From a virus (lineage: Duplodnaviria; Heunggongvirae; Uroviricota; Caudoviricetes): DNA of 40,230 bases. A model generated the notes under the pieces. That model was not told where the DNA came from. It did not search any database and saw nothing but the letters and a program-made list of their open reading frames with translations. The stretch spans positions 1-40,230 of IMG/VR virus record IMGVR_UViG_2563366875_000002, one strand, 5' to 3'. A program made the translations under genes and the position numbers. Shown here piece by piece: positions 5,435 through 37,146 of the stretch; position 1 is the first letter of the stretch; every line of letters begins with the position of its first letter.

Positions 5435-6109
5435 TTAGGCTTTGATTTTGTATCTTCTTGGTTTTCCTGAGAAAATCACTGTACCAATTATAGAGCAATT
5501 ACCGTTGATCTTAATGTAAGGCTCAGGCCAGTTTGGGTTTAACGCTTTGAGATAACGCTGTGTCCCATCTTCTATCAACCTTTTGAAGGTGGTTTCGCCT
5601 GTATCGTGCATCAATGCAATAACGTCGTCACCGTGGCAGGCAGGTACTTCAGGATCGACAAAAATCATGTCTCCCGGGCGGTACTCATCAATCATTGAAT
5701 CACCTATCACCCGCAAGATATAAGTCATTTCCCCACAGGGTACAGGGCAGGGATACGTTTCTGCTGTGCTCAAATCAACCTCAGAATATCCAACTTCTTT
5801 CCATGCTCCGGCCTGTACCCATGATATGACAGGGACTAATGTGATTTGTTTATTAGTGATTGAAACATCAGGTTTTTTTGTGATGTTCGTTGTCTGGTGT
5901 TCTTGATCGAGCCATCCGACAGGCAGGTCGAAACATTTTTCGATGTGTCGTGCCATGCTGTCACCGATATTTTTAGTAGCACCATCTCCCATAAACCTGC
6001 TGGTCTGGGTTGGCTCGCGATCAATCATAGTGGCAAAGGAAGAATTCCCGCCAACACCATCTCTCAGTTTTCTGGCGTTAGACCGCCGGATGTCATGGAT
6101 TGTTTTCAT
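5435..6109 (-). CDS. cI-like phage repressor (HTH domain plus LexA/S24-type autocleavage domain)
   Basis: 224 aa; N-terminal HTH region; C-terminal peptidase S24-like region with GDSM serine motif and downstream lysine; divergent from a cro-like gene across palindromic operators. Confidence 0.88.
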   Translation of the reverse strand: MKTIHDIRRSNARKLRDGVGGNSSFATMIDREPTQTSRFMGDGATKNIGDSMARHIEKCFDLPVGWLDQEHQTTNITKKPDVSITNKQITLVPVISWVQAGAWKEVGYSEVDLSTAETYPCPVPCGEMTYILRVIGDSMIDEYRPGDMIFVDPEVPACHGDDVIALMHDTGETTFKRLIEDGTQRYLKALNPNWPEPYIKINGNCSIIGTVIFSGKPRRYKIKA

Positions 6110-6124
6110 AACGAAATTAAAACC

Positions 6125-6145
6125 CTTGTACCGTTAAGGTACAAG
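6125..6145. promoter_or_regulatory. putative operator (perfect palindrome CTTGTACC-GTTAA-GGTACAAG)
   Basis: perfect 8 bp inverted repeat in the cI/cro intergenic region. Confidence 0.5.
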
Positions 6146-6172
6146 TATCTTGAAGGTTCATTTCAATCATGT

Positions 6173-6197
6173 AATATGTACACCGGAGGTACATATT
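6173..6197. promoter_or_regulatory. putative operator (near-palindrome AATATGTACA-N5-GGTACATATT) overlapping the cro RBS
   Basis: inverted repeat sharing the TGTACC/GGTACA half-site with 6125-6145. Confidence 0.45.
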
Positions 6198-6199
6198 GT

Positions 6200-6400
6200 A
6201 TGAAAGCGTATTGGGACTCTTTAACCAAAGAACAGCAGGGCGAGTTGGCCGGAAAAGTTGGCTCAACACCTGGCTACTTACGGCTGGTTTTCAATGGCTA
6301 TAAAAAAGCCAGTTTTGTGCTGGCTAAAAAACTTGAGCAATGCACGTCAGGTGCAATTACGAAATCTGACTTAAGACCGGATATCTATCCGAAAGATTAG
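6200..6400 (+). CDS. Cro-like small DNA-binding regulator
   Basis: 66 aa from internal ATG 6200 with RBS GGAGG; HTH-like GKVGSTPGYLRLVFNG; divergent from repressor. Confidence 0.7.
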   Translation: MKAYWDSLTKEQQGELAGKVGSTPGYLRLVFNGYKKASFVLAKKLEQCTSGAITKSDLRPDIYPKD

Positions 6401-6431
6401 CAGAACACTTTCAATTTTTAACCACAGAACG

Positions 6432-6995
6432 ATGAGGCTAACCGTGGGTAAGCATCACTGGAAAATAGAAAAACAGCCTGAGTGGTACGTGAAAGCTGTC
6501 AGAAAAACTATCGCGGCGTTGCCGGGTGGTTACGCTGAAGCGGCTGACTGGCTCGATGTAACAGAAAACGCTTTATTCAACCGCCTTCGTGCAGATGGCG
6601 ATCAGATTTTCCCGCTGGGATGGGCAATGGTTTTACAGCGTGCTGGTGGCACTCACTTCATTGCTGATGCTGTGGCGCAGTCTGCAAATGGCGTCTTTGT
6701 GTCTCTTCCTGACGTCGAGGATGTGGACAACGCCGATATCAACCAACGCCTGCTGGAAGTCATTGAACAGATCGGCAGTTATTCAAAACAGATTCGTTCA
6801 GCAATTGAAGACGGTGTAGTGGAACCGCATGAGAAGACAGCAATTAACGATGAGCTGTACCTCTCAATTTCGAAGCTGCAGGAGCATGCAGCACTGGTCT
6901 ACAAAATCTTTTGCGTTTCAGAAAGTAGTGACGCCCGCGAGTGTGCAGCTCCGGGCGCCGTGGCGTGTCGTGACTGTGGAGAAACTAACGCATGA
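6432..6995 (+). CDS. putative cII-position regulatory protein (hypothetical)
   Basis: 187 aa ORF directly after cro-like gene in the rightward early operon; assignment by position only. Confidence 0.5.
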
Positions 6996-7330
6996 ACAGT
7001 TTAACAACACACTACCGTCGCTCGCAACTGATTGCGCTTCCTGTACCGGGTGGAAAAGCGAAGGTGGAGTATTGCTATGCAGTAAATGTACTAGGTGACA
7101 GGGAAATTGTAACCCACAGCTTTGCAGAGTGGGCTGTGGGTGATTTCAACCGGCAGAAGGAGACAGTCCTTTGCGACAAGTTAACCGCTGGTTCAAAGAT
7201 CACTACGGAGTGCCCGTCAGAGTCATTCGTTGGGAGCCGGAAACACAACGGGTTATCTACCTCCGTGAAGGCTATGAGCATGAGTGCTTCAGCCCGCTCG
7301 AACAGTTTCGTTGTAAATTCAGGGAAATAG
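6992..7330 (+). CDS. hypothetical protein; C-terminal third looks out of frame (possible frameshift)
   Basis: N-terminal part protein-like; after about 7180 the product becomes Ser-rich low complexity while the -1 frame (7144..7350) reads as a natural protein. Confidence 0.35.
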
Positions 7331-7339
7331 AGGTCGGTC

Positions 7340-8281
7340 ATGAGCACTAAATTAACCGGCTATGTATGGGATGGTTGCGCTGCGTCAGGCATGAAATTAT
7401 CCAGCGTGGCAATTATGGCCCGCCTGGCTGATTTCAGTAATGACGAAGGTGTGTGCTGGCCATCAATTGAAACCATTGCCCGTCAGATTGGCGCGGGGAT
7501 GAGTACCGTCAGAACGGCTATCGCACGGCTGGAAGCAGAAGGCTGGTTAACGCGTAAGGCGCGTCGCCAGGGTAACCGCAATGCGTCGAATGTTTATCAG
7601 CTTAACGTTGCGAAGCTTCAGGCAGCGGCATTTTCTCAACTGTCAGATTCTGACCCGTCAAAATCTGACGCATCAAAATCTGACCCGTCAAAATTTGATG
7701 CGTCGAAATCTGGCAAAAAAGCGGGTTTTCACCCGTCAGAATCTGGCGGGGATCCGTCAGTAAAATCAAAACATGATCCGTCAGATAAAAAAACTTCTCG
7801 TCCGGACGCTTCGCAACCGGACACGCAGACGGCTGAACAGGAGTTTTTAACTCGCCATCCTGATGCGGTTGTATTCAGCCCTAAAAAGCGCCAGTGGGGA
7901 ACGCAGGATGATTTGACCTGCGCACAGTGGCTCTGGAAAAAAATCATCGCCCTGTACGAGCAGGCCGCCGAATGTGACGGCGAGGTGGTTCGTCCCAAAG
8001 AACCGAACTGGACAGCCTGGGCAAACGAAATTCGCCTGATGTGTGTGCAGGATGGTCGTACTCACAAACAAATCTGCGAGATGTACAGCCGCGTCAGCCG
8101 CGATCCGTTCTGGTGCCGTAACGTGCTCAGCCCGTCGAAGCTGCGGGAAAAATGGGATGAGCTTTCCCTGCGCTTATCGCCGTCCGTCAGCACGTACACA
8201 GAAAAACGCGAAGACCCGTACTTCAAAGCCAGTTACGACAACGTGGACTACAGCCAGATCCCGGCAGGATTCAGGGGGTGA
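7340..8281 (+). CDS. phage replication initiation protein (O-like; N-terminal HTH, internal repeat linker)
   Basis: 313 aa; N-terminal HTH-like region (CWPSIETIARQIGAGMSTVRTAIARLEAEGWL); repeated DPSKSDASKSDPSK linker encoded by DNA iterons; position between cII-like gene and RusA/Q. Confidence 0.75.
   Translation: MSTKLTGYVWDGCAASGMKLSSVAIMARLADFSNDEGVCWPSIETIARQIGAGMSTVRTAIARLEAEGWLTRKARRQGNRNASNVYQLNVAKLQAAAFSQLSDSDPSKSDASKSDPSKFDASKSGKKAGFHPSESGGDPSVKSKHDPSDKKTSRPDASQPDTQTAEQEFLTRHPDAVVFSPKKRQWGTQDDLTCAQWLWKKIIALYEQAAECDGEVVRPKEPNWTAWANEIRLMCVQDGRTHKQICEMYSRVSRDPFWCRNVLSPSKLREKWDELSLRLSPSVSTYTEKREDPYFKASYDNVDYSQIPAGFRG
7641..7795. repeat. iteron-like direct repeats (putative origin of replication inside the replication gene) followed by an A-rich tract
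   Basis: at least 4 tandem copies of about 18 bp (CCGTCAAAATCTGAC variants) plus degenerate copies, then ATAAAAAAACTTC. Confidence 0.55.
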
Positions 8282-11709: not shown

Positions 11710-13041
11710 TTACTGGATGAATGACATTTGATTAATATATTTTATCAATAACTCTCTGGGTGTAGTACTCCAAAAATTTATGTGTTCATAATCAGTATAA
11801 ACATTTGTGAATTTTTTAAGTTCTTCATCACTTTTAGGGGCAAATCGCTCATTAAGAGTAATACTGTCTTTAATTATTCCGAAGAATACAATGGATATTT
11901 CAGGGATTTGCGATCTTCTCTCATAAGAATAAGGTATTTCTTTTATGTTAAGCAGGTCTGCTAAATAAGATATAGATTCAGCGGTAATTTCTTGTTTTAG
12001 TTTTTCCTTGTTACCAAAGCAATGTATGAAGGCAGCTACGACAAAGATCATATTTATTAAAGGATCACTGCTTTTGTTCTCATCGTCGTTTAACAGTTGA
12101 AAAATGTTAAGATTGCGTGAAAATGTTTGTGTTTCACGTAATGATAAGTTGGTTCGTTGAATTAAATCACGGATAAAGTAACCTGATAATCTATTGATTT
12201 TATTCAATAACCTTGTTTTTTCTACAAGGTAATCCCAATATATAACAGAGGCTTTACATACGTTGTGACCATTTATTAAACATGTATCTGGAAGCGTGAT
12301 GGTATATTTTATAAACTTGTCAAGATACTTTTGTGAGTTAATGCTATAACCATAAATATGATTTATAGATGCTTTTAATTGTTCTGTGTTTGTAACTAAA
12401 ATAAAAAAGACATTATTGATGTCAAAAATGTGTTTTATTGTTTCAATGACATTTGTTGAAAAACTCGGCTTACATCGGTCTAATTCATCAATTATAATTA
12501 CGATTTTTTGATTTTTTGATATGCTTTCGATGCAGGATTTAAGTGAATTTATGTTTTTCTCTGAGTCCATATGGTCTTCAAGCAAATTTTCAATAGTCCC
12601 ATCTATTGCTGCATTGCTTGCTTTCTTCATCGCATCTTGGAATTCTTCGGCAACTTCACTAGCCTCCTGTCGTAAAAACCAACCTGCACCAGCTTTTAGT
12701 ACCGTTTTTAAACCAAAGCGAATTGCAGGAAGAGATCTCTTAATGAAGTGTTGTTTTTCTTCCTCAGGCAAAATGCTGGCAATTGCAGAGGTTATGAGAA
12801 GTAATGGAGATTCTGCATGATCCCCTTTAAAGGCATCAATATAAACAACTTTAGATTCAGTTTCTTGCTCAATAATGAGATTTTTCAGTTTGATACTAAA
12901 TTCTGTTTTCCCTGTTCCCCATGCGCCGTCTATTACCAGTGGTGAAATGTCTGCCTCTGGTTTTAGCAACTTGATGATATTTTCAGCGATGTTTCTTCGT
13001 TGGAACTCGTCACGTTCAGTGAAAGATAGTGTATCTAACAT
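11710..13041 (-). CDS. KAP-family P-loop NTPase
   Basis: 443 aa; Walker A DGAWGTGKT (res 38-46), Walker B-like VIIIDELDRC; strongly AT-rich compared with flanking phage genes. Confidence 0.85.
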   Translation of the reverse strand: MLDTLSFTERDEFQRRNIAENIIKLLKPEADISPLVIDGAWGTGKTEFSIKLKNLIIEQETESKVVYIDAFKGDHAESPLLLITSAIASILPEEEKQHFIKRSLPAIRFGLKTVLKAGAGWFLRQEASEVAEEFQDAMKKASNAAIDGTIENLLEDHMDSEKNINSLKSCIESISKNQKIVIIIDELDRCKPSFSTNVIETIKHIFDINNVFFILVTNTEQLKASINHIYGYSINSQKYLDKFIKYTITLPDTCLINGHNVCKASVIYWDYLVEKTRLLNKINRLSGYFIRDLIQRTNLSLRETQTFSRNLNIFQLLNDDENKSSDPLINMIFVVAAFIHCFGNKEKLKQEITAESISYLADLLNIKEIPYSYERRSQIPEISIVFFGIIKDSITLNERFAPKSDEELKKFTNVYTDYEHINFWSTTPRELLIKYINQMSFIQ

Positions 13042-13311
13042 AATATAAACCTATTAACTCCTACAGTAAAAAACGAATAATACGACTTTGGGATTAAAAA
13101 TCATTAACGCGGTCCGCAAAAATTCTTGTAATCTGTTAAGAGTGGTTACTTCGCCACACAGCTTAAACCCGCCGTCGAGCGGTTTTTTTGTACCTGTAAA
13201 CCAAGAGCAGTACGGTAAACACGCTGGTGGTCGTGAATACTGACTTTTTATCTTGCTGGCTTTTTAGACAAGAGTTATTGGTATGTCATGTTAACCAGAA
13301 GGGAAAAAGAC

Positions 13312-13506
13312 ATGCTAAAACAGCAAGATATGACAGAAACGGCGAAAGTTGTTTTTAATGAATTAAGCATCGAACCGGCAACAGTCGGGGAGATTGCACA
13401 AAACACATACCTTTCACGCGAACGCTGTCAGTTAATACTGACCCAGCTGGTTATGGCGGGGCTGGCAGATTACCAGTTCGGCTGTTACAGACGCCTTCAG
13501 CAATGA
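13312..13506 (+). CDS. small hypothetical protein, possible HTH
   Basis: 64 aa from ATG 13312 with RBS AAGGGA; ATVGEIAQNTYLSRERCQLIL resembles a recognition helix; upstream of the methyltransferase. Confidence 0.4.
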   Translation: MLKQQDMTETAKVVFNELSIEPATVGEIAQNTYLSRERCQLILTQLVMAGLADYQFGCYRRLQQ

Positions 13507-13655
13507 AGGGCTTTTAATTTGTGAAAATGGGCGGCTGGTGGGTGTTGGTAGCACCTGCCAGCCATTCGCTCATGCCTACTGGTCACAAGCGAACCACGGC
13601 CCACTGCTTTAGCGCAAAAGCAGAGTGAGCCTACCAGAGTTACGCTTACTGATCC

Positions 13656-14708
13656 ATGAAAAATACTGTAAAAATAAACAGTGTTGATTTAATCAACGCT
13701 GATTGCCTGCATTTTATTCAGTCCCTGCCTGATGATTCCATTGACCTGATTGTTACCGATCCGCCTTACTTCAAGGTGAAACCCAACGGTTGGGACAATC
13801 AGTGGAAAGGGGACGAAGATTACCTTAAGTGGCTGGACCACTGTCTGGCCCAGTTCTGGCGGGTGTTGAAACCTGCCGGAAGCCTTTACCTGTTCTGTGG
13901 GCATCGCCTGGCATCTGATATTGAGATCATGATGCGTGAACGTTTCAACGTGCTTAACCATATCATCTGGGCGAAGCCGTCCGGACGTTGGAATGGGTGT
14001 AATAAAGAAAGTCTGCGCGCATATTTTCCTGCCACAGAGCGCGTTCTGTTTGCTGAACATTACCAGGGGCCATATCGCGGCAAAAGTGACGGCTATGCGG
14101 CAAAAGAAAGGGAACTCAAACAGCACATAATGGCACCGCTGATATCGTATTTCAGGGATGCTCGTGCCGAACTGGGTATAACGGCAAAACAAATTGCCGA
14201 AGCCACAGGTAAGAAAAATATGGTTTCCCACTGGTTTGGTGCCAGTCAGTGGCAGTTGCCGAATGAGGCTGACTATCGGAAGTTACAGGCACTGTTTTCC
14301 CGTATAGCGGCAGAGAAGTTTCAGGAACAACAACTGGAACAACCACACCACCAGCTGGTGGCATCTTATGATTCACTGAATCGCAAATATTCTGAATTGC
14401 TGGATGAGTTTAAATCTCTCCGGCGCTTTTTCTCCGTATCAGTCTCCGTGCCTTATACCGATGTCTGGACGCATAAGCCCGTTCAGTTCTACCCGGGTAA
14501 ACATCCGTGCGAGAAACCGGCGGATATGCTCCGGCAAATAATCAATGCCAGTAGTCGACCTGGTGATCTGGTTGCTGATTTCTTTATGGGATCCGGTTCC
14601 ACAATAAAAGCAGCAATGGCGCTGGGGCGTCGGGCGTTAGGTGTTGAACTTGAGTCAGAGCGGTTTAATCAGACGGTGAAAGAGGTAAGTGAACTGGTGG
14701 GGAAATAA
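13656..14708 (+). CDS. DNA N6-adenine methyltransferase (orphan, beta-class amino-MTase)
   Basis: 350 aa; motif IV DPPY (LIVTDPPYF) near N-terminus and motif I FFMGSGST near C-terminus; no adjacent restriction endonuclease. Confidence 0.88.
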   Translation: MKNTVKINSVDLINADCLHFIQSLPDDSIDLIVTDPPYFKVKPNGWDNQWKGDEDYLKWLDHCLAQFWRVLKPAGSLYLFCGHRLASDIEIMMRERFNVLNHIIWAKPSGRWNGCNKESLRAYFPATERVLFAEHYQGPYRGKSDGYAAKERELKQHIMAPLISYFRDARAELGITAKQIAEATGKKNMVSHWFGASQWQLPNEADYRKLQALFSRIAAEKFQEQQLEQPHHQLVASYDSLNRKYSELLDEFKSLRRFFSVSVSVPYTDVWTHKPVQFYPGKHPCEKPADMLRQIINASSRPGDLVADFFMGSGSTIKAAMALGRRALGVELESERFNQTVKEVSELVGK

Positions 14709-28799: not shown

Positions 28800-28898
28800 T
28801 GTACAAAATGATTAATGTGTTTTTGTCTGGCATAATTTGGGTTTTCAGCTTTAAGTAGTTAATATAATCATTCCTTACAAATGATTGAAGGGATGATT

Positions 28899-29393
28899 AT
28901 GCGTATCTTTGTTTTTTTTATATCTGCACTTTTATCTTTTAACTTGGCTGCGGAAGAGTGTAAGTTCAGCTTTAATGAGTCAGAATTAATCTCTTCTATA
29001 GGTATTGCACCAGTTAAGCAAGAGATAATAAAGGATGAAGGAATAACTAAGCGGCAATATGAATTCAGAAGAGAATTATCTTCTGAAGAAATGCTTAGTG
29101 ATGACGCTGATGAAAAATATGAGCCGCAGTTTTATATATCTGTTTATAATCCATCATGCCCACAAAAGGTTATTGTTTGGTTTTTCAAAGACAATAAAAA
29201 CACAATGGATTTAAGTAATGAGGTCCTTGCTGGTAGAGCGTTCAAGTATTTAACTGGTGTTAATGAAAGTATTTTTGAAAATAAAATGAAAAAGTTTTTA
29301 AAGGTACAGTCATTTGAATCTTTTGATGAAAGGACAGATTCTAAATTTATAAAGAGTGGTGATATTTATTCCATTGATGTTCAACTCAGATAG
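28899..29393 (+). CDS. secreted hypothetical protein (moron) with Sec-type signal peptide
   Basis: AT-rich ORF; start taken at ATG 28899 after GAAGGGA (ORF track starts 28881); signal peptide MRIFVFFISALLSFNLAAEE; TATAAT at 28863-28868. Confidence 0.6.
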   Translation: MRIFVFFISALLSFNLAAEECKFSFNESELISSIGIAPVKQEIIKDEGITKRQYEFRRELSSEEMLSDDADEKYEPQFYISVYNPSCPQKVIVWFFKDNKNTMDLSNEVLAGRAFKYLTGVNESIFENKMKKFLKVQSFESFDERTDSKFIKSGDIYSIDVQLR

Positions 29394-33906: not shown

Positions 33907-34481
33907 CAAACGATGATTACATCCGTCTGTTGTCGGCACTGTTGCCCCCCGGTCCGGCGTGGTCAGCCAGCGATCCGGCGATTGCCGGTGCGGCACCGTC
34001 ATTAACCCGCGTTCATCAGCGTGCGGATGCCCTGATGCGGGAGCTGGATCCGCGCACCACCACTGAACTGATAAACCGCTGGGAGCGTCTGTGCGGTCTG
34101 CCGGATGAATGTATTCCCGCAGGGACACAGACCCTTCGCCAGCGTCAGCAACGGCTGGATGCGAAGGTTAACCTGGCGGGCGGCATCAACGAGAATTTTT
34201 ATCTTGCACAGCTTGCTGCCCTGGGCAGACCAGATGCCACCATCACGCGATACGACAAAAGCACGTTCACCTGCTCATCGGCCTGTACTGACGCTGTGAA
34301 CGCGCCTGAATGGCGGTATTACTGGCAGGTCAACATGCCAGCCGCCACCAACACCACCTGGATGACATGTGGCGATCCCTGTGATTCCGCACTGCGTATC
34401 TGGGGCGACACAGTTGTCGAATGTGTGCTTAACAAACTCTGCCCGTCGCATACCTACGTAATTTTTAAATATCCGGAGTAA
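33897..34481 (+). CDS. tail protein (Mu gp48-like)
   Basis: 194 aa; precedes tail fibre gene. Confidence 0.75.
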
Positions 34482-34484
34482 TCC

Positions 34485-35228
34485 ATGCATCGTATAGACA
34501 CGAAAACCGCGCAGAAGGATAAGTTCGGCGCGGGTAAGAACGGTTTTACCCGTGGTAACCCCCAGACCGGCACGCCTGCCACCGATCTGGATGATGACTA
34601 CTTTGACATGTTGCAGGAGGAGCTTTGCAGCGTTGTGGAGGCGTCCGGTGCCAGCCTGGAGAAGGGGCGGCACGACCAGCTACTTACCGCGCTTCGCGCG
34701 CTGCTGTTAAGCCGCAAGAATCCGTTTGGCGATATCAAATCGGATGGCACGGTGAAAACGGCTCTCGAAAACCTTGGTTTGGGAGAAGCGGCAAAACGGA
34801 ATGTGGGCAACGGGGAAAACCAAATCCCTGATATGTCTTTCTGGACGGTTACTGGTGGCAATGGAAATTTTGTGATTCGTCAACCTGACGGGCTAATCAC
34901 TCAGATGGTTACTGTAAGTATAAGCGGTCCAGTGGCGATGAATGGAATGACTGATAATGCTTATGCCATTACAGGTTCTAATAAGTCTTATATTGCCACA
35001 GCCACATTGCCCTTTGTATTTCCTAATAAGGTGCTGGGCGTTATCCCTCTGGTATCAACAACAGCCTATGGGGGTGTATCCAGTAATATTACAGGTTCAT
35101 ACGCGACGGCGGTTTGTTCTTTTGCCGCTGTCCGGGGGAATAATACGATTGTATTCAAAGTCGACAAACCACTGAATGCAGCCTTTCCTTCAGATACCAG
35201 CGTCTCAGCGTTAATCATTGGACGGTAA
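34485..35228 (+). CDS. tail fibre protein (constant N-terminal part plus currently expressed variable C-terminal part)
   Basis: 247 aa; N-terminus [21 protein letters not shown] typical of Mu S-type fibres; crossover repeat inside the gene at 34774-34788. Confidence 0.8.
34774..34788. repeat. left recombination site of the invertible segment (TTGGTTTGGGAGAAG; core AAAACC-TT-GGTTT)
   Basis: perfect 15 bp inverted repeat with 36727-36741; palindromic core resembles gix/hix crossover sites. Confidence 0.7.
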
Positions 35229-35230
35229 TA

Positions 35231-35674
35231 ATGAACTCAGTATTCTTTTCACCCGGAAGTAAAAGTTTTTATCTACAAGAATTGTTTCCAGAATATGAGG
35301 ATGCGGGAACGCTTCCAGATGATGTTATTGAAATTACCCGAGAAACATATGAGCAATTTCTTGGGCTGCATCCAGAAGGGAAAGAAATTGGCGCTGACAG
35401 TTCAGGACGGCCAATATGGATTAATTCCCCACCGCCTTCAAAAGAGGATGAGGTGTTGATGGCTGAAATGAAAAAAATATCTTTGGTTTCAGAAGCCAAT
35501 ACTTACATCAATACCCATCAGTGGCCTGGCAAAGCTGCTATTGGTCGGCTGAAAGGTAACGAGCTGGCGCAATATAATTTGTGGCTGGATTATCTGGACG
35601 CACTGGAACTGGTTGATCCCTCCAGTGCTCCAGATATTGAATGGCCTACGCCTCCGGCAGTTCAGGCCAGATGA
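35231..35674 (+). CDS. tail fibre assembly protein
   Basis: 147 aa immediately after fibre gene; C-terminal region shared with the convergent minus-strand copy. Confidence 0.8.
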   Translation: MNSVFFSPGSKSFYLQELFPEYEDAGTLPDDVIEITRETYEQFLGLHPEGKEIGADSSGRPIWINSPPPSKEDEVLMAEMKKISLVSEANTYINTHQWPGKAAIGRLKGNELAQYNLWLDYLDALELVDPSSAPDIEWPTPPAVQAR

Positions 35675-36248
35675 CATCCGGTGCGGTGCTGGTATCTGTT
35701 GCCGTCACCGCGTCAATGTAATCCAGCGCAGCGTTAAGTCGGGCGGTTTCTGCCTGCGTCAGGTTCCGTCCGGCCTGTAATTTCAGTTGAATCAGACTGA
35801 TAGAAGCCATTGCTGTATCAATCAGCGACTGGCGCTGTGCTTCTGCTGCATCTACTACGGCGCTATGCTGTGCCTCGGTATCCGTCACCCATTTCTCACC
35901 ATCCCATTTATCGTATGGCGTTAACGGGGCGATAGTGGTTGTATTATCAGGGTAATCACCCGGTGCTGTGATTTCTTTTGATTCTCCTGTTTCGGTGTTA
36001 TAGACGATTTCACCGCGATGGTCTGGTACATATTCCCATGAGTTAAAATCTGCAGAGCGGCAGATTGCATAACCAGCTTTGTAGGTGCCTGGAGCATCTA
36101 AACAGGAATATGCCGGAATGCCGACACCAACAGCAAGATATTCAGTTGAAGCTGAAATATACTCCCGACTCATGACGTCAAAGTTATAAACAGTAATTTC
36201 TCCTGCCATAGTGGCAATTAATTCACTGTTTAATTCTGCGTTATTCAT
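35646..36248 (-). CDS. alternative tail fibre assembly protein
   Basis: 200 aa convergent with the plus-strand copy; conserved C-terminus (DVIWPELPEA versus DIEWPTPPAV). Confidence 0.78.
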   Translation of the reverse strand: MNNAELNSELIATMAGEITVYNFDVMSREYISASTEYLAVGVGIPAYSCLDAPGTYKAGYAICRSADFNSWEYVPDHRGEIVYNTETGESKEITAPGDYPDNTTTIAPLTPYDKWDGEKWVTDTEAQHSAVVDAAEAQRQSLIDTAMASISLIQLKLQAGRNLTQAETARLNAALDYIDAVTATDTSTAPDVIWPELPEA

Positions 36249-36741
36249 TATGCAGCCCTCACAATATAGTTAAAAGCGACATTTCGTGGGCGTGTTTCAT
36301 TCGCACCTGCAGGTTTAGTCGTTGCCGCAACAACACCACCCTCTGTAATAGCCGGGTTAGGAATTGGGTAATTATCGAAGTCAATGGCCGGAGACAGGGG
36401 CGTGATTTGTTTTAAAATCGTGGTGCCTGTAAAACTTTCCAGAGTCTGGTCGTTAGTTCGTGAAGTCCAGATTCCCCAATAGTGGTTATGACTGACAATC
36501 GCACCGTCCTGAAGCGTTAATAATCCCCTTCCGTTATCCACTCCACGTCCGTCATCCCAGCCACGAATAAACTCACCGCGTAAATCAGGCAATTTATTTG
36601 TCGGGTAAGCCTTTGCCAGTTCCGGGTATTCTTCAGCAGAAAAAGCCGCACCATTGCACTTCAGCCAGCCTGTCGGCGGAGTGGCGGAAGGCCACGGAAC
36701 AGGCACACCAACAGGTAATGCAGAGCCTTCTCCCAAACCAA
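36248..36741 (-). CDS. alternative tail fibre variable C-terminal part (no own start; fused to the constant part after inversion)
   Basis: reading frame begins at the crossover repeat with VGLGEGSALPVG; tail-collar-like LPDLRGEFIRGWDDGRG motif. Confidence 0.7.
36727..36741. repeat. right recombination site of the invertible segment (inverted copy)
   Basis: CTTCTCCCAAACCAA is the exact reverse complement of 34774-34788; lies just upstream of the invertase gene. Confidence 0.7.
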
Positions 36742-36807
36742 CGTTTATGAAAATGTAGAAATAACGAGCAAATGGCATCATTCCTGCTTTTGTCAGGGAG
36801 ATCTACC

Positions 36808-37146
36808 ATGCTTATTGGCTATGTACGTGTGTCAACAAATGACCAGAACACAGATCTACAACGTAATGCGCTGAACTGTGCAGGATGCGAGCTGATTTTT
36901 GAAGACAAGATAAGCGGTACAAAGTCCGAAAGGCCTGGACTGAAAAAACTGCTCAGGACATTATCGGCAGGTGATACGCTGGTGGTCTGGAAACTGGACC
37001 GACTGGGGCGCAGTATGCGGCATCTTGTCGTGCTGGTGGACGAAGATTTAGAGCATGAGTTAATTAATGGCGGTTTGTCCCACTATTGTGGTTGGTATCC
37101 CCATAGAACAGGGCAAGATATAGTTGTTCATCATGTTCACTCATAA
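36808..37146 (+). pseudogene. serine DNA invertase (Gin/Pin/Hin family), 3'-truncated
   Basis: N-terminal about 95 residues match the Gin family from memory (MLIGYVRVSTNDQNTDLQRNAL...TLVVWKLDRLGRSM); similarity is lost after about nt 37100; ORF ends at 112 aa versus about 190 aa expected; C-terminal DNA-binding domain absent. Confidence 0.8.

Follow-up and report, generated by a model that had tools for sequence, protein, structure and literature searches.

A Pin-type tail-fibre inversion switch beside a truncated invertase gene in an Escherichia coli prophage: probable inversion by an invertase supplied in trans

The P segment of the defective prophage e14 of Escherichia coli K-12 and its invertase PinE were reportedly described by Plasterk and van de Putte in 1985. 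We analyzed a related locus in a 40,230-nucleotide stretch of viral DNA (IMG/VR record IMGVR_UViG_2563366875_000002, positions 1 to 40,230; this whole stretch is hereafter called the window), in which an invertible tail-fibre segment lies next to the 5′ part of a pinE gene. The gene order is that of e14: a ymfQ-like baseplate gene, the constant part of the fibre, a variable end with its tfa gene, a convergent tfaE gene with the alternative end, and pinE. The P-segment repeat quoted by Kirigo et al. 2025, TTGGTTTGGGAGAAGG (PMC12529663), is also the core of the inverted repeat found here, and the segments agree in size, at ~1.8–2.0 kb. By its sequence the locus is a member of the e14 P-segment type and is predicted to work in the same way. 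There are nevertheless clear differences: mcrA follows an intact pin gene in e14-type loci (for example in KE58), whereas here pinE breaks off after ~78 codons and other cargo comes next; e14 is defective and inserted at icd, whereas the prophage of the window lies at a tRNA-Thr gene and looks complete; and the variable alleles are not the same. The locus is probably a Pin/Gin-type tail-fibre switch that has lost its autonomy and now relies for inversion on a serine invertase of the Pin family provided in trans.

In the Mu (G/Gin), P1 (C/Cin) and Salmonella (H/Hin) systems, as here, the invertase gene stands beside the right crossover site and the sites are 26 bp long with a 2-bp core; alternative fibre C-termini with paired chaperones are annotated in Mu as well. 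Unlike the present locus, these systems encode a full-length invertase, and what Hin switches is a promoter rather than a fibre fusion. A direct precedent for the truncation is Phi4 of EC958 (Forde et al. 2014, PMC4134206), where a fibre segment bounded by 26-bp sites adjoins a severely truncated invertase without a helix-turn-helix. Both orientations were present in PacBio reads, and the authors invoke an enzyme acting in trans. Phi4 represents another phage, its segment is 3.1 kb long and its crossover sites have another sequence, and its evidence consists of PacBio reads from within a culture, whereas ours is a comparison between genomes. Both the trans action of Pin-family invertases and continued flipping beside a truncated invertase (EC958 Phi4) are already published. 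What is new is modest: this truncated lineage, repeated flips after truncation in two independent lineages, and the retention in the stubs of the presumed enhancer part. A previous reading of the nucleotide sequence of the window (the original prediction) had recognized the fibre switch and its truncated invertase, and had held the switch to be probably locked in its current orientation.

The fibre switch and the pinE remnant

A repeat search returned inverted-repeat arms at 34769-34788 and 36727-36746 (20 nt, 19 of 20 positions complementary). Within them, the exact 15-mer TTGGTTTGGGAGAAG occurs at 34774-34788 on the plus strand and at 36727-36741 on the minus strand and nowhere else across the window, and the perfect inverted repeats first noticed there are real. 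When up to two mismatches are allowed, 0.12 matches to the 15-mer are expected by chance, and a single one of 100 shuffles attains two. Each repeat forms the inner half of a 26-bp site built on the 12 + 2 + 12 plan of the Gin, Hin, Cin and Pin systems. The left crossover site, pixL (34762-34787), reads CTCTCGAAAACC-TT-GGTTTGGGAGAA, with its central dinucleotide TT at 34774-34775; the right site, pixR (36728-36753), reads TTTTCATAAACG-TT-GGTTTGGGAGAA on the reverse complement, its central dinucleotide appearing as AA at 36740-36741. As is usual for crossover sites of these systems, the two are in inverted orientation and have related half-sites and a common core, here with identical inner half-sites and TT/AA, and both are similar to the Mu/P1/e14 crossover-site consensus (taken from PMC4134206). 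The pixL sequence is identical in all 12 compared loci that have both sites (11 with truncated pinE, and KE58 with intact pinE), and the inversion breakpoints of the relatives described below fall within it.

The invertible segment comprises the 1964 bp between the central dinucleotides (34776-36739). In the present orientation the fibre gene (34485-35228, plus strand) encodes a protein of 247 amino acids (aa). Its constant N-terminal part of ~96 codons (34485-34773; phrog_1396 tail fibre, residues 1-102, 1.1e-59) ends ...ENLGLGE across pixL and is continued in frame by a gp53-like variable C-terminus (34776-35228, plus strand; weak Gp53-like_C match, 8.4e-4; phrog_12714, 5.6e-48), after which comes the assembly chaperone of this form (35231-35674, plus strand; Caudo_TAP, 2.7e-27; phrog_188). 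On the minus strand, a TfaE-like chaperone of the alternative form (35646-36248; Caudo_TAP, 1.3e-32; phrog_105, 2.3e-96) accompanies a silent alternative C-terminus with a tail-collar domain (36248-36739; Collar, 8.8e-16). One constant N-terminus can thus be fused to either of two convergent variable ends, each followed by its own chaperone, as in the e14 P segment. The arrangement of convergent fibre ends and assembly genes between the repeats, put forward in the original prediction, is borne out by Caudo_TAP domains on both strands, and so is its proposal that inversion would leave an alternative fibre in frame: flipping the segment in silico gave an uninterrupted fibre of 260 aa, identical at every residue to the annotated fibre WP_097710789.1 of strain SC407. 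Fibres of this flipped state, with the constant part joined to the collar end, are called 'integrase' in the RefSeq annotation of GPEC1035, GPEC1210 and TUM12357 (2886-3632 of extracted loci L010 and L011; 2980-3726 of L013), apparently a naming error.

The adjacent pinE remnant (36808-37043, plus strand) retains ~78 codons of a serine-invertase catalytic domain, in an open reading frame of 112 codons that runs on to 37146 in unrelated DNA. Over residues 1-79 it is 97.5% identical to PinE by tblastn, ~78 of 184 residues being kept; it is homologous to residues 1-82 of 193 of Gin (PDB 3UJ3, 4M6F), and the Resolvase domain is matched in its reading frame at positions 2-88 of 145 only. At the DNA level, 34300-37043 is 93-96% identical to loci annotated pinE, and identity to pinE is 95-97% at the 5′ end of pin. 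Homology stops at 37043/37044, whether the comparison is with intact pinE or with any invertase of the phage collection. R7, S9, D64, R65 and R68, all of them catalytic, are retained, whereas part of the catalytic domain, the oligomerisation helix E and the whole helix-turn-helix DNA-binding domain are gone. The locus hence encodes no full-length small serine invertase of the Gin/Hin/Cin/Pin kind, and the NCBI automatic annotation (PGAP) labels the same remnant a partial pinE pseudogene in 12 genomes. A tblastn search of the window for another invertase, or for the C-terminal half of Pin at some other position, matched residues 1-79 only. Judged from these losses, the cognate invertase must certainly be dead. 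The truncation and the missing C-terminal DNA-binding domain had been correctly foreseen, with the retained length put at ~95 residues instead of ~78. The notion that short invertase-like proteins of this size might be intact and active finds no support in a remnant devoid of helix E and the DNA-binding domain.

Inversion in relatives with truncated pin genes

We compared the locus with 5,426 complete E. coli genomes. The junction at 37043/37044, followed by the same downstream DNA, was found in exactly 12 of them, and a 31-mer spanning it is invariant in all 12. As junction and 31-mer are common to all these genomes, the comparison points to one ancestral truncation event. The carriers and the window form three groups by segment allele, and both orientations occur within each. 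The segment of the window is present as its reverse complement in SC406, SC407 and SC422, with 5 mismatches in 1964 positions and flanks 98.5% (left) and 99.86% (right) identical. RX24 and FDAARGOS_1337 have segments that are 99.5% identical and inverted, with flanks 97.8% and 99.7% identical on the left and right, respectively. Between GPEC1209 and the pair GPEC1035 and GPEC1210, no mismatch was found in the 1837 bp of the inverted segment, nor in the 3189 + 5768 bp of its flanks. The relatives with the same truncation thus display conservative inversion at the crossover sites, their interiors being exact reverse complements and their flanks unaltered. Furthermore, the outer half-sites differ at one position (C or G, at 34773 and its counterpart), and this difference is unmoved in every locus, which places the exchange within the 15 exactly repeated base pairs, as would be expected if the central dinucleotide is cleaved with a stagger. 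Four of the 12 loci with both sites (11 genomes and the window) have the orientation of the window and eight the opposite one, each assembly being a snapshot of the majority state and genomes within a lineage being non-independent.

The junction 31-mer had no match when one genome per species was scanned, and neither junction nor cargo was found in any of 50,697 phage records. Junction matches in IMG/VR were restricted to two contigs, one degraded and the other too short for its orientation to be determined with confidence. In the degraded contig (UViG_2718217897_000010, extracted locus L017), as in the H1827/12 genome (L004, 3293-5055), pixL has been lost and a terminase small-subunit gene is joined straight to a partial tfa gene. 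Because pixL is missing, the half-segment beside the pin stub is truly frozen in these two elements.

Two further truncations of pin were found. In a second, independent lineage, which includes IHE3034, UTI89, S88, APEC O1, NU14 and ATCC 11775, the pin gene stops after 41 codons, and next to it, on the opposite strand, comes a DUF262/GmrSD-like gene (IHE3034, NC_017628.1, 4467-6692 of extracted locus L023). Its orientation was assessed with two 991-bp queries, one natural and one flipped in silico, of which both the segment-specific and the junction-specific sequence were needed to reach 80% coverage. Forty-five genomes have the orientation of IHE3034 and 78 the flipped one, UTI89, S88, NU14 and ATCC 11775 among the latter, and many flipped genomes match the in-silico construct at 100.0% over all 991 bp. 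The phage record vB_EcoM-611R5 (ON470588.1; 5082-5396 of extracted locus L022) presents a third truncation, again independent and again at this end of the prophage: its annotated 'DNA invertase' of 104 aa consists of ~87 Pin residues and then unrelated sequence. Both the 41-codon lineage and vB_EcoM-611R5 share the switch architecture of the window, whereas their breakpoints (after 41 or ~87 codons) are independent of the one studied here and the cargo is different (a DUF262/GmrSD-like gene). The prediction of a locked switch consequently fails for the element as such: in three pairs a shared segment allele lies in opposite orientations despite an identical truncation, and the 45 to 78 split of an independently truncated sister lineage contradicts it as well.

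The Hin enhancer lies within the 5′ end of the invertase gene, and those of gin and cin do likewise. From its position and homology, the corresponding block of the pin stub (36827-36894) is presumed to be a Fis-dependent recombinational enhancer. Its sequence is that of intact pinE, has 76% identity to Mu gin and begins ~86 bp from the centre of pixR; the hin enhancer measures 65 bp, has two Fis sites and lies ~100 bp from hixL (PMC3798978). Two Fis core sites could not be placed at base resolution by eye, candidate G...C 15-mers being 49 bp apart, as compared to a reported spacing of 47 bp for the hin Fis sites. Both stubs, of 236 nt in the window and of 123 nt in the 41-codon lineage, keep the block, which is compatible with the notion that the retained stubs may leave the segment competent for inversion. 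We dismissed an inference of selection for the block from the position of all three breakpoints downstream of it, such an outcome having a chance of ~0.6 by our own estimate. In one member of the 41-codon lineage, APEC IMT5155, an IS66-family element lies between pixR and the pin stub (5469-8084 of extracted locus L024) and puts the presumed enhancer ~2.7 kb from the crossover site.

Candidate sources of an invertase and alternative explanations

The following course of events would account for these data. At its cargo end the prophage would have undergone a replacement that removed the pinE codons from ~79 on and joined the stub to low-GC accessory genes. What inversion needs in cis would have survived, namely both 26-bp sites, their matching central dinucleotides and the 5′ pin block positioned as the hin/gin enhancer region; because all of these are preserved, the segment should still be a substrate for an invertase. 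The enzyme itself could be encoded by a second prophage, by a phage-plasmid or by a phage that superinfects the cell, and inversion would then alternate the 247-aa gp53-like fibre and its chaperone with the 260-aa collar-domain fibre and the TfaE-like chaperone.

Candidate enzymes were counted on the chromosomes of the carriers with chimeric queries that combined unique cargo DNA and invertase probes. No PinE-like 3′ half was found in SC406, SC407 and SC422, which have two PinR/Q-like genes, or in FDAARGOS_1337 and SCU-301, which have one. Eco_23-2667 has one PinE-like 3′ half and no PinR/Q-like gene, TUM12357 one and two, respectively, and H1827/12 two of each; GPEC1035, GPEC1209 and GPEC1210 have two, three and three PinE-like 3′ halves with one PinR/Q-like gene each. 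In RX24 both counts were zero. Eleven of the 12 carriers therefore have one or more further PinE-like or PinR/Q-like genes on the chromosome, candidates for a trans-acting invertase. In the 41-codon lineage, 33 of the 60 genomes listed have at least one candidate. The original prediction had made an exception for a paralogous invertase acting in trans, and this is now the favoured branch. Experimental precedents exist: plasmid-expressed PinQ takes the e14 P segment to ~88% inverted (PMC12529663), and a reporter with an inactivated hin is flipped by plasmid-borne hin (PMC4513852). The nature of the enzyme that acts on the present segment is what we infer from these genes and precedents.

Several observations weigh against inversion in trans. 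No invertase is encoded within the window itself, and DNA probes detected no other chromosomal invertase in RX24 or in 27 of the 60 genomes listed for the 41-codon lineage, a search that took in neither plasmids nor serine recombinases of divergent sequence. In K-12, a complete deletion of pinE leaves the P segment locked despite the presence of pinQ and pinR (PMC12529663). Native levels of PinQ and PinR may thus be insufficient for flipping; presumably, this deletion also takes out the enhancer region. The enhancer role of 36827-36894 rests on position and homology, and third-codon positions of the block are no more conserved than elsewhere (pin and gin match at 10 of 23 in the block, and at 10 of 22 and 12 of 23 in the two that follow). 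Finally, differences in orientation between assemblies record historical states, not rates, and the GPEC set alone is clearly recent.

The K-12 result, the lack of another invertase in the window and the case of RX24, which has the orientation of the window, speak for a switch that is locked in the source strain. The strain would be frozen with the gp53-like fibre for want of a functional invertase, its cognate enzyme being certainly dead, and the relatives would have flipped in ancestors or in other hosts; H1827/12 and one IMG/VR contig, having lost pixL, are truly locked. Such a locked state is possible for the source strain alone, although we regard it as unlikely, and it fails for the element, which flipped repeatedly after truncation, including between loci with zero differences in their flanks. 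The split of the second truncated lineage and the presence of other invertase genes in most carriers also tell against it. The source strain itself may be able to flip its segment, given a suitable enzyme. Opposite orientations might also have arisen by homologous recombination, either through import of an already inverted segment from a prophage whose invertase is intact or through transfer of the stub and cargo onto prophages of either orientation. Module exchange is indeed clear, as the stub and cargo are found in three chromosomal contexts and behind two baseplate modules, and in two pairs the left flank (97.8-98.5%) is more diverged than the segment and right flank. However, the same segment allele (99.5-100% identical) occurs in both orientations, whereas alleles of different lineages align only partly, at ~87-94%. 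Moreover, the GPEC pair has no difference outside the flip, all breakpoints fall in the 15-bp core, and the outer half-site polymorphism is unmoved, which makes this explanation very improbable.

An inversion that requires no invertase at all, by RecA or by replication template-switching at low frequency between the 20-bp inverted repeats, would suit RX24, PMV-1 and ATCC 11775, which between them show both orientations and in which DNA probes found no other chromosomal invertase. Plasmid-borne or divergent invertases could nevertheless be present in such probe-negative genomes. A repeat of 20 bp is shorter than the length usually required for efficient recombination by RecA, and repeated flips, a 37:63 split in one lineage and exact junctions at the canonical invertase site indicate site-specific recombination, so that we give this route next to no credence. 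An invertase supplied in trans therefore accounts best for the inversions. A bolder extension, which we find doubtful, is that the stub is the retained cis half of the system, and that lineages repeatedly shed their invertase with cargo turnover, preserve the crossover sites and the enhancer-bearing 5′ stub, and so become hitch-hiking switches that use co-resident invertases. In its radical version, the probe-negative genomes (RX24, PMV-1, ATCC 11775) might flip by an unrecognised recombinase or by an invertase-independent route.

A truncated invertase beside a fibre switch does not amount to a frozen host range, since both states occur in two independent E. coli prophage lineages. In host-range prediction, prophage annotation and assembly checks, such segments should be treated as still mobile. 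The practical consequence is modest, as both the mechanism and a direct precedent (EC958 Phi4) are already in the literature.

Prophage context and cargo DNA

The window is an E. coli prophage at tRNA-Thr beside proA. The tRNA-Thr (CGT) gene (1369-1444) overlaps the left att repeat (64 nt, 1399-1462), the partner copy of which, 95% identical, lies past the end of the window (43324-43387 of extracted locus L014, from SC407). Because attR lies beyond the window, all cargo genes are inside the prophage. In the near-identical SC407 prophage the genes for lysis, head, contractile tail and a Mu-like baseplate are all present, and the element is apparently a complete myovirus-type prophage of ~42 kb. 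An Rfam search of 34000-40230 gave no credible match, and promoter-like sites occurred at chance level.

The DNA that replaces the 3′ end of pin (37044-40230, plus strand) has a GC content of 0.34-0.40 and extends towards attR. Two proteins are encoded in it, one of 365 aa whose N-terminus carries a membrane anchor (37547-38644, plus strand) and one of 213 aa (39589-40230, plus strand) that had no Pfam or PHROG match and a weak match to the candidate defence family PDC-S50 (E 6e-4). In SC407, the gene for the 213-aa protein is followed, before attR, by a hypothetical gene of 252 aa on the opposite strand. Within E. coli, the cargo DNA from 37044 on was found joined to this pin stub only. The stub and cargo occur in three chromosomal contexts (on the paoD, prfC and torT sides) and with two different baseplate modules, and this variety argues that they spread as a module by recombination among phages. 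The slot downstream of pin is occupied, according to lineage, by mcrA, by the DUF262/GmrSD-like gene or by the gene for the 365-aa protein, a Citrobacter homologue of which lies in a prophage remnant and adjoins a putative AbiC gene. This slot looks like a hotspot for cargo or defence genes, the turnover of which repeatedly clips the invertase gene.

Two other low-GC insertions were noted elsewhere in the prophage. One, an open reading frame for 170 aa with a signal-peptide-like N-terminus (28881-29393), is located between the tape-measure and DNA circularisation genes and has no counterpart in the SC407 prophage. The other, an island at 11710-14708 (GC 0.34-0.46), separates the antiterminator Q region from the lysis genes and encodes an N6/N4 DNA methylase (1e-42) and, on the minus strand, a KAP-family P-loop NTPase (9e-71); as SC407 has other genes at this position, the island marks a second variable cargo site of the prophage.

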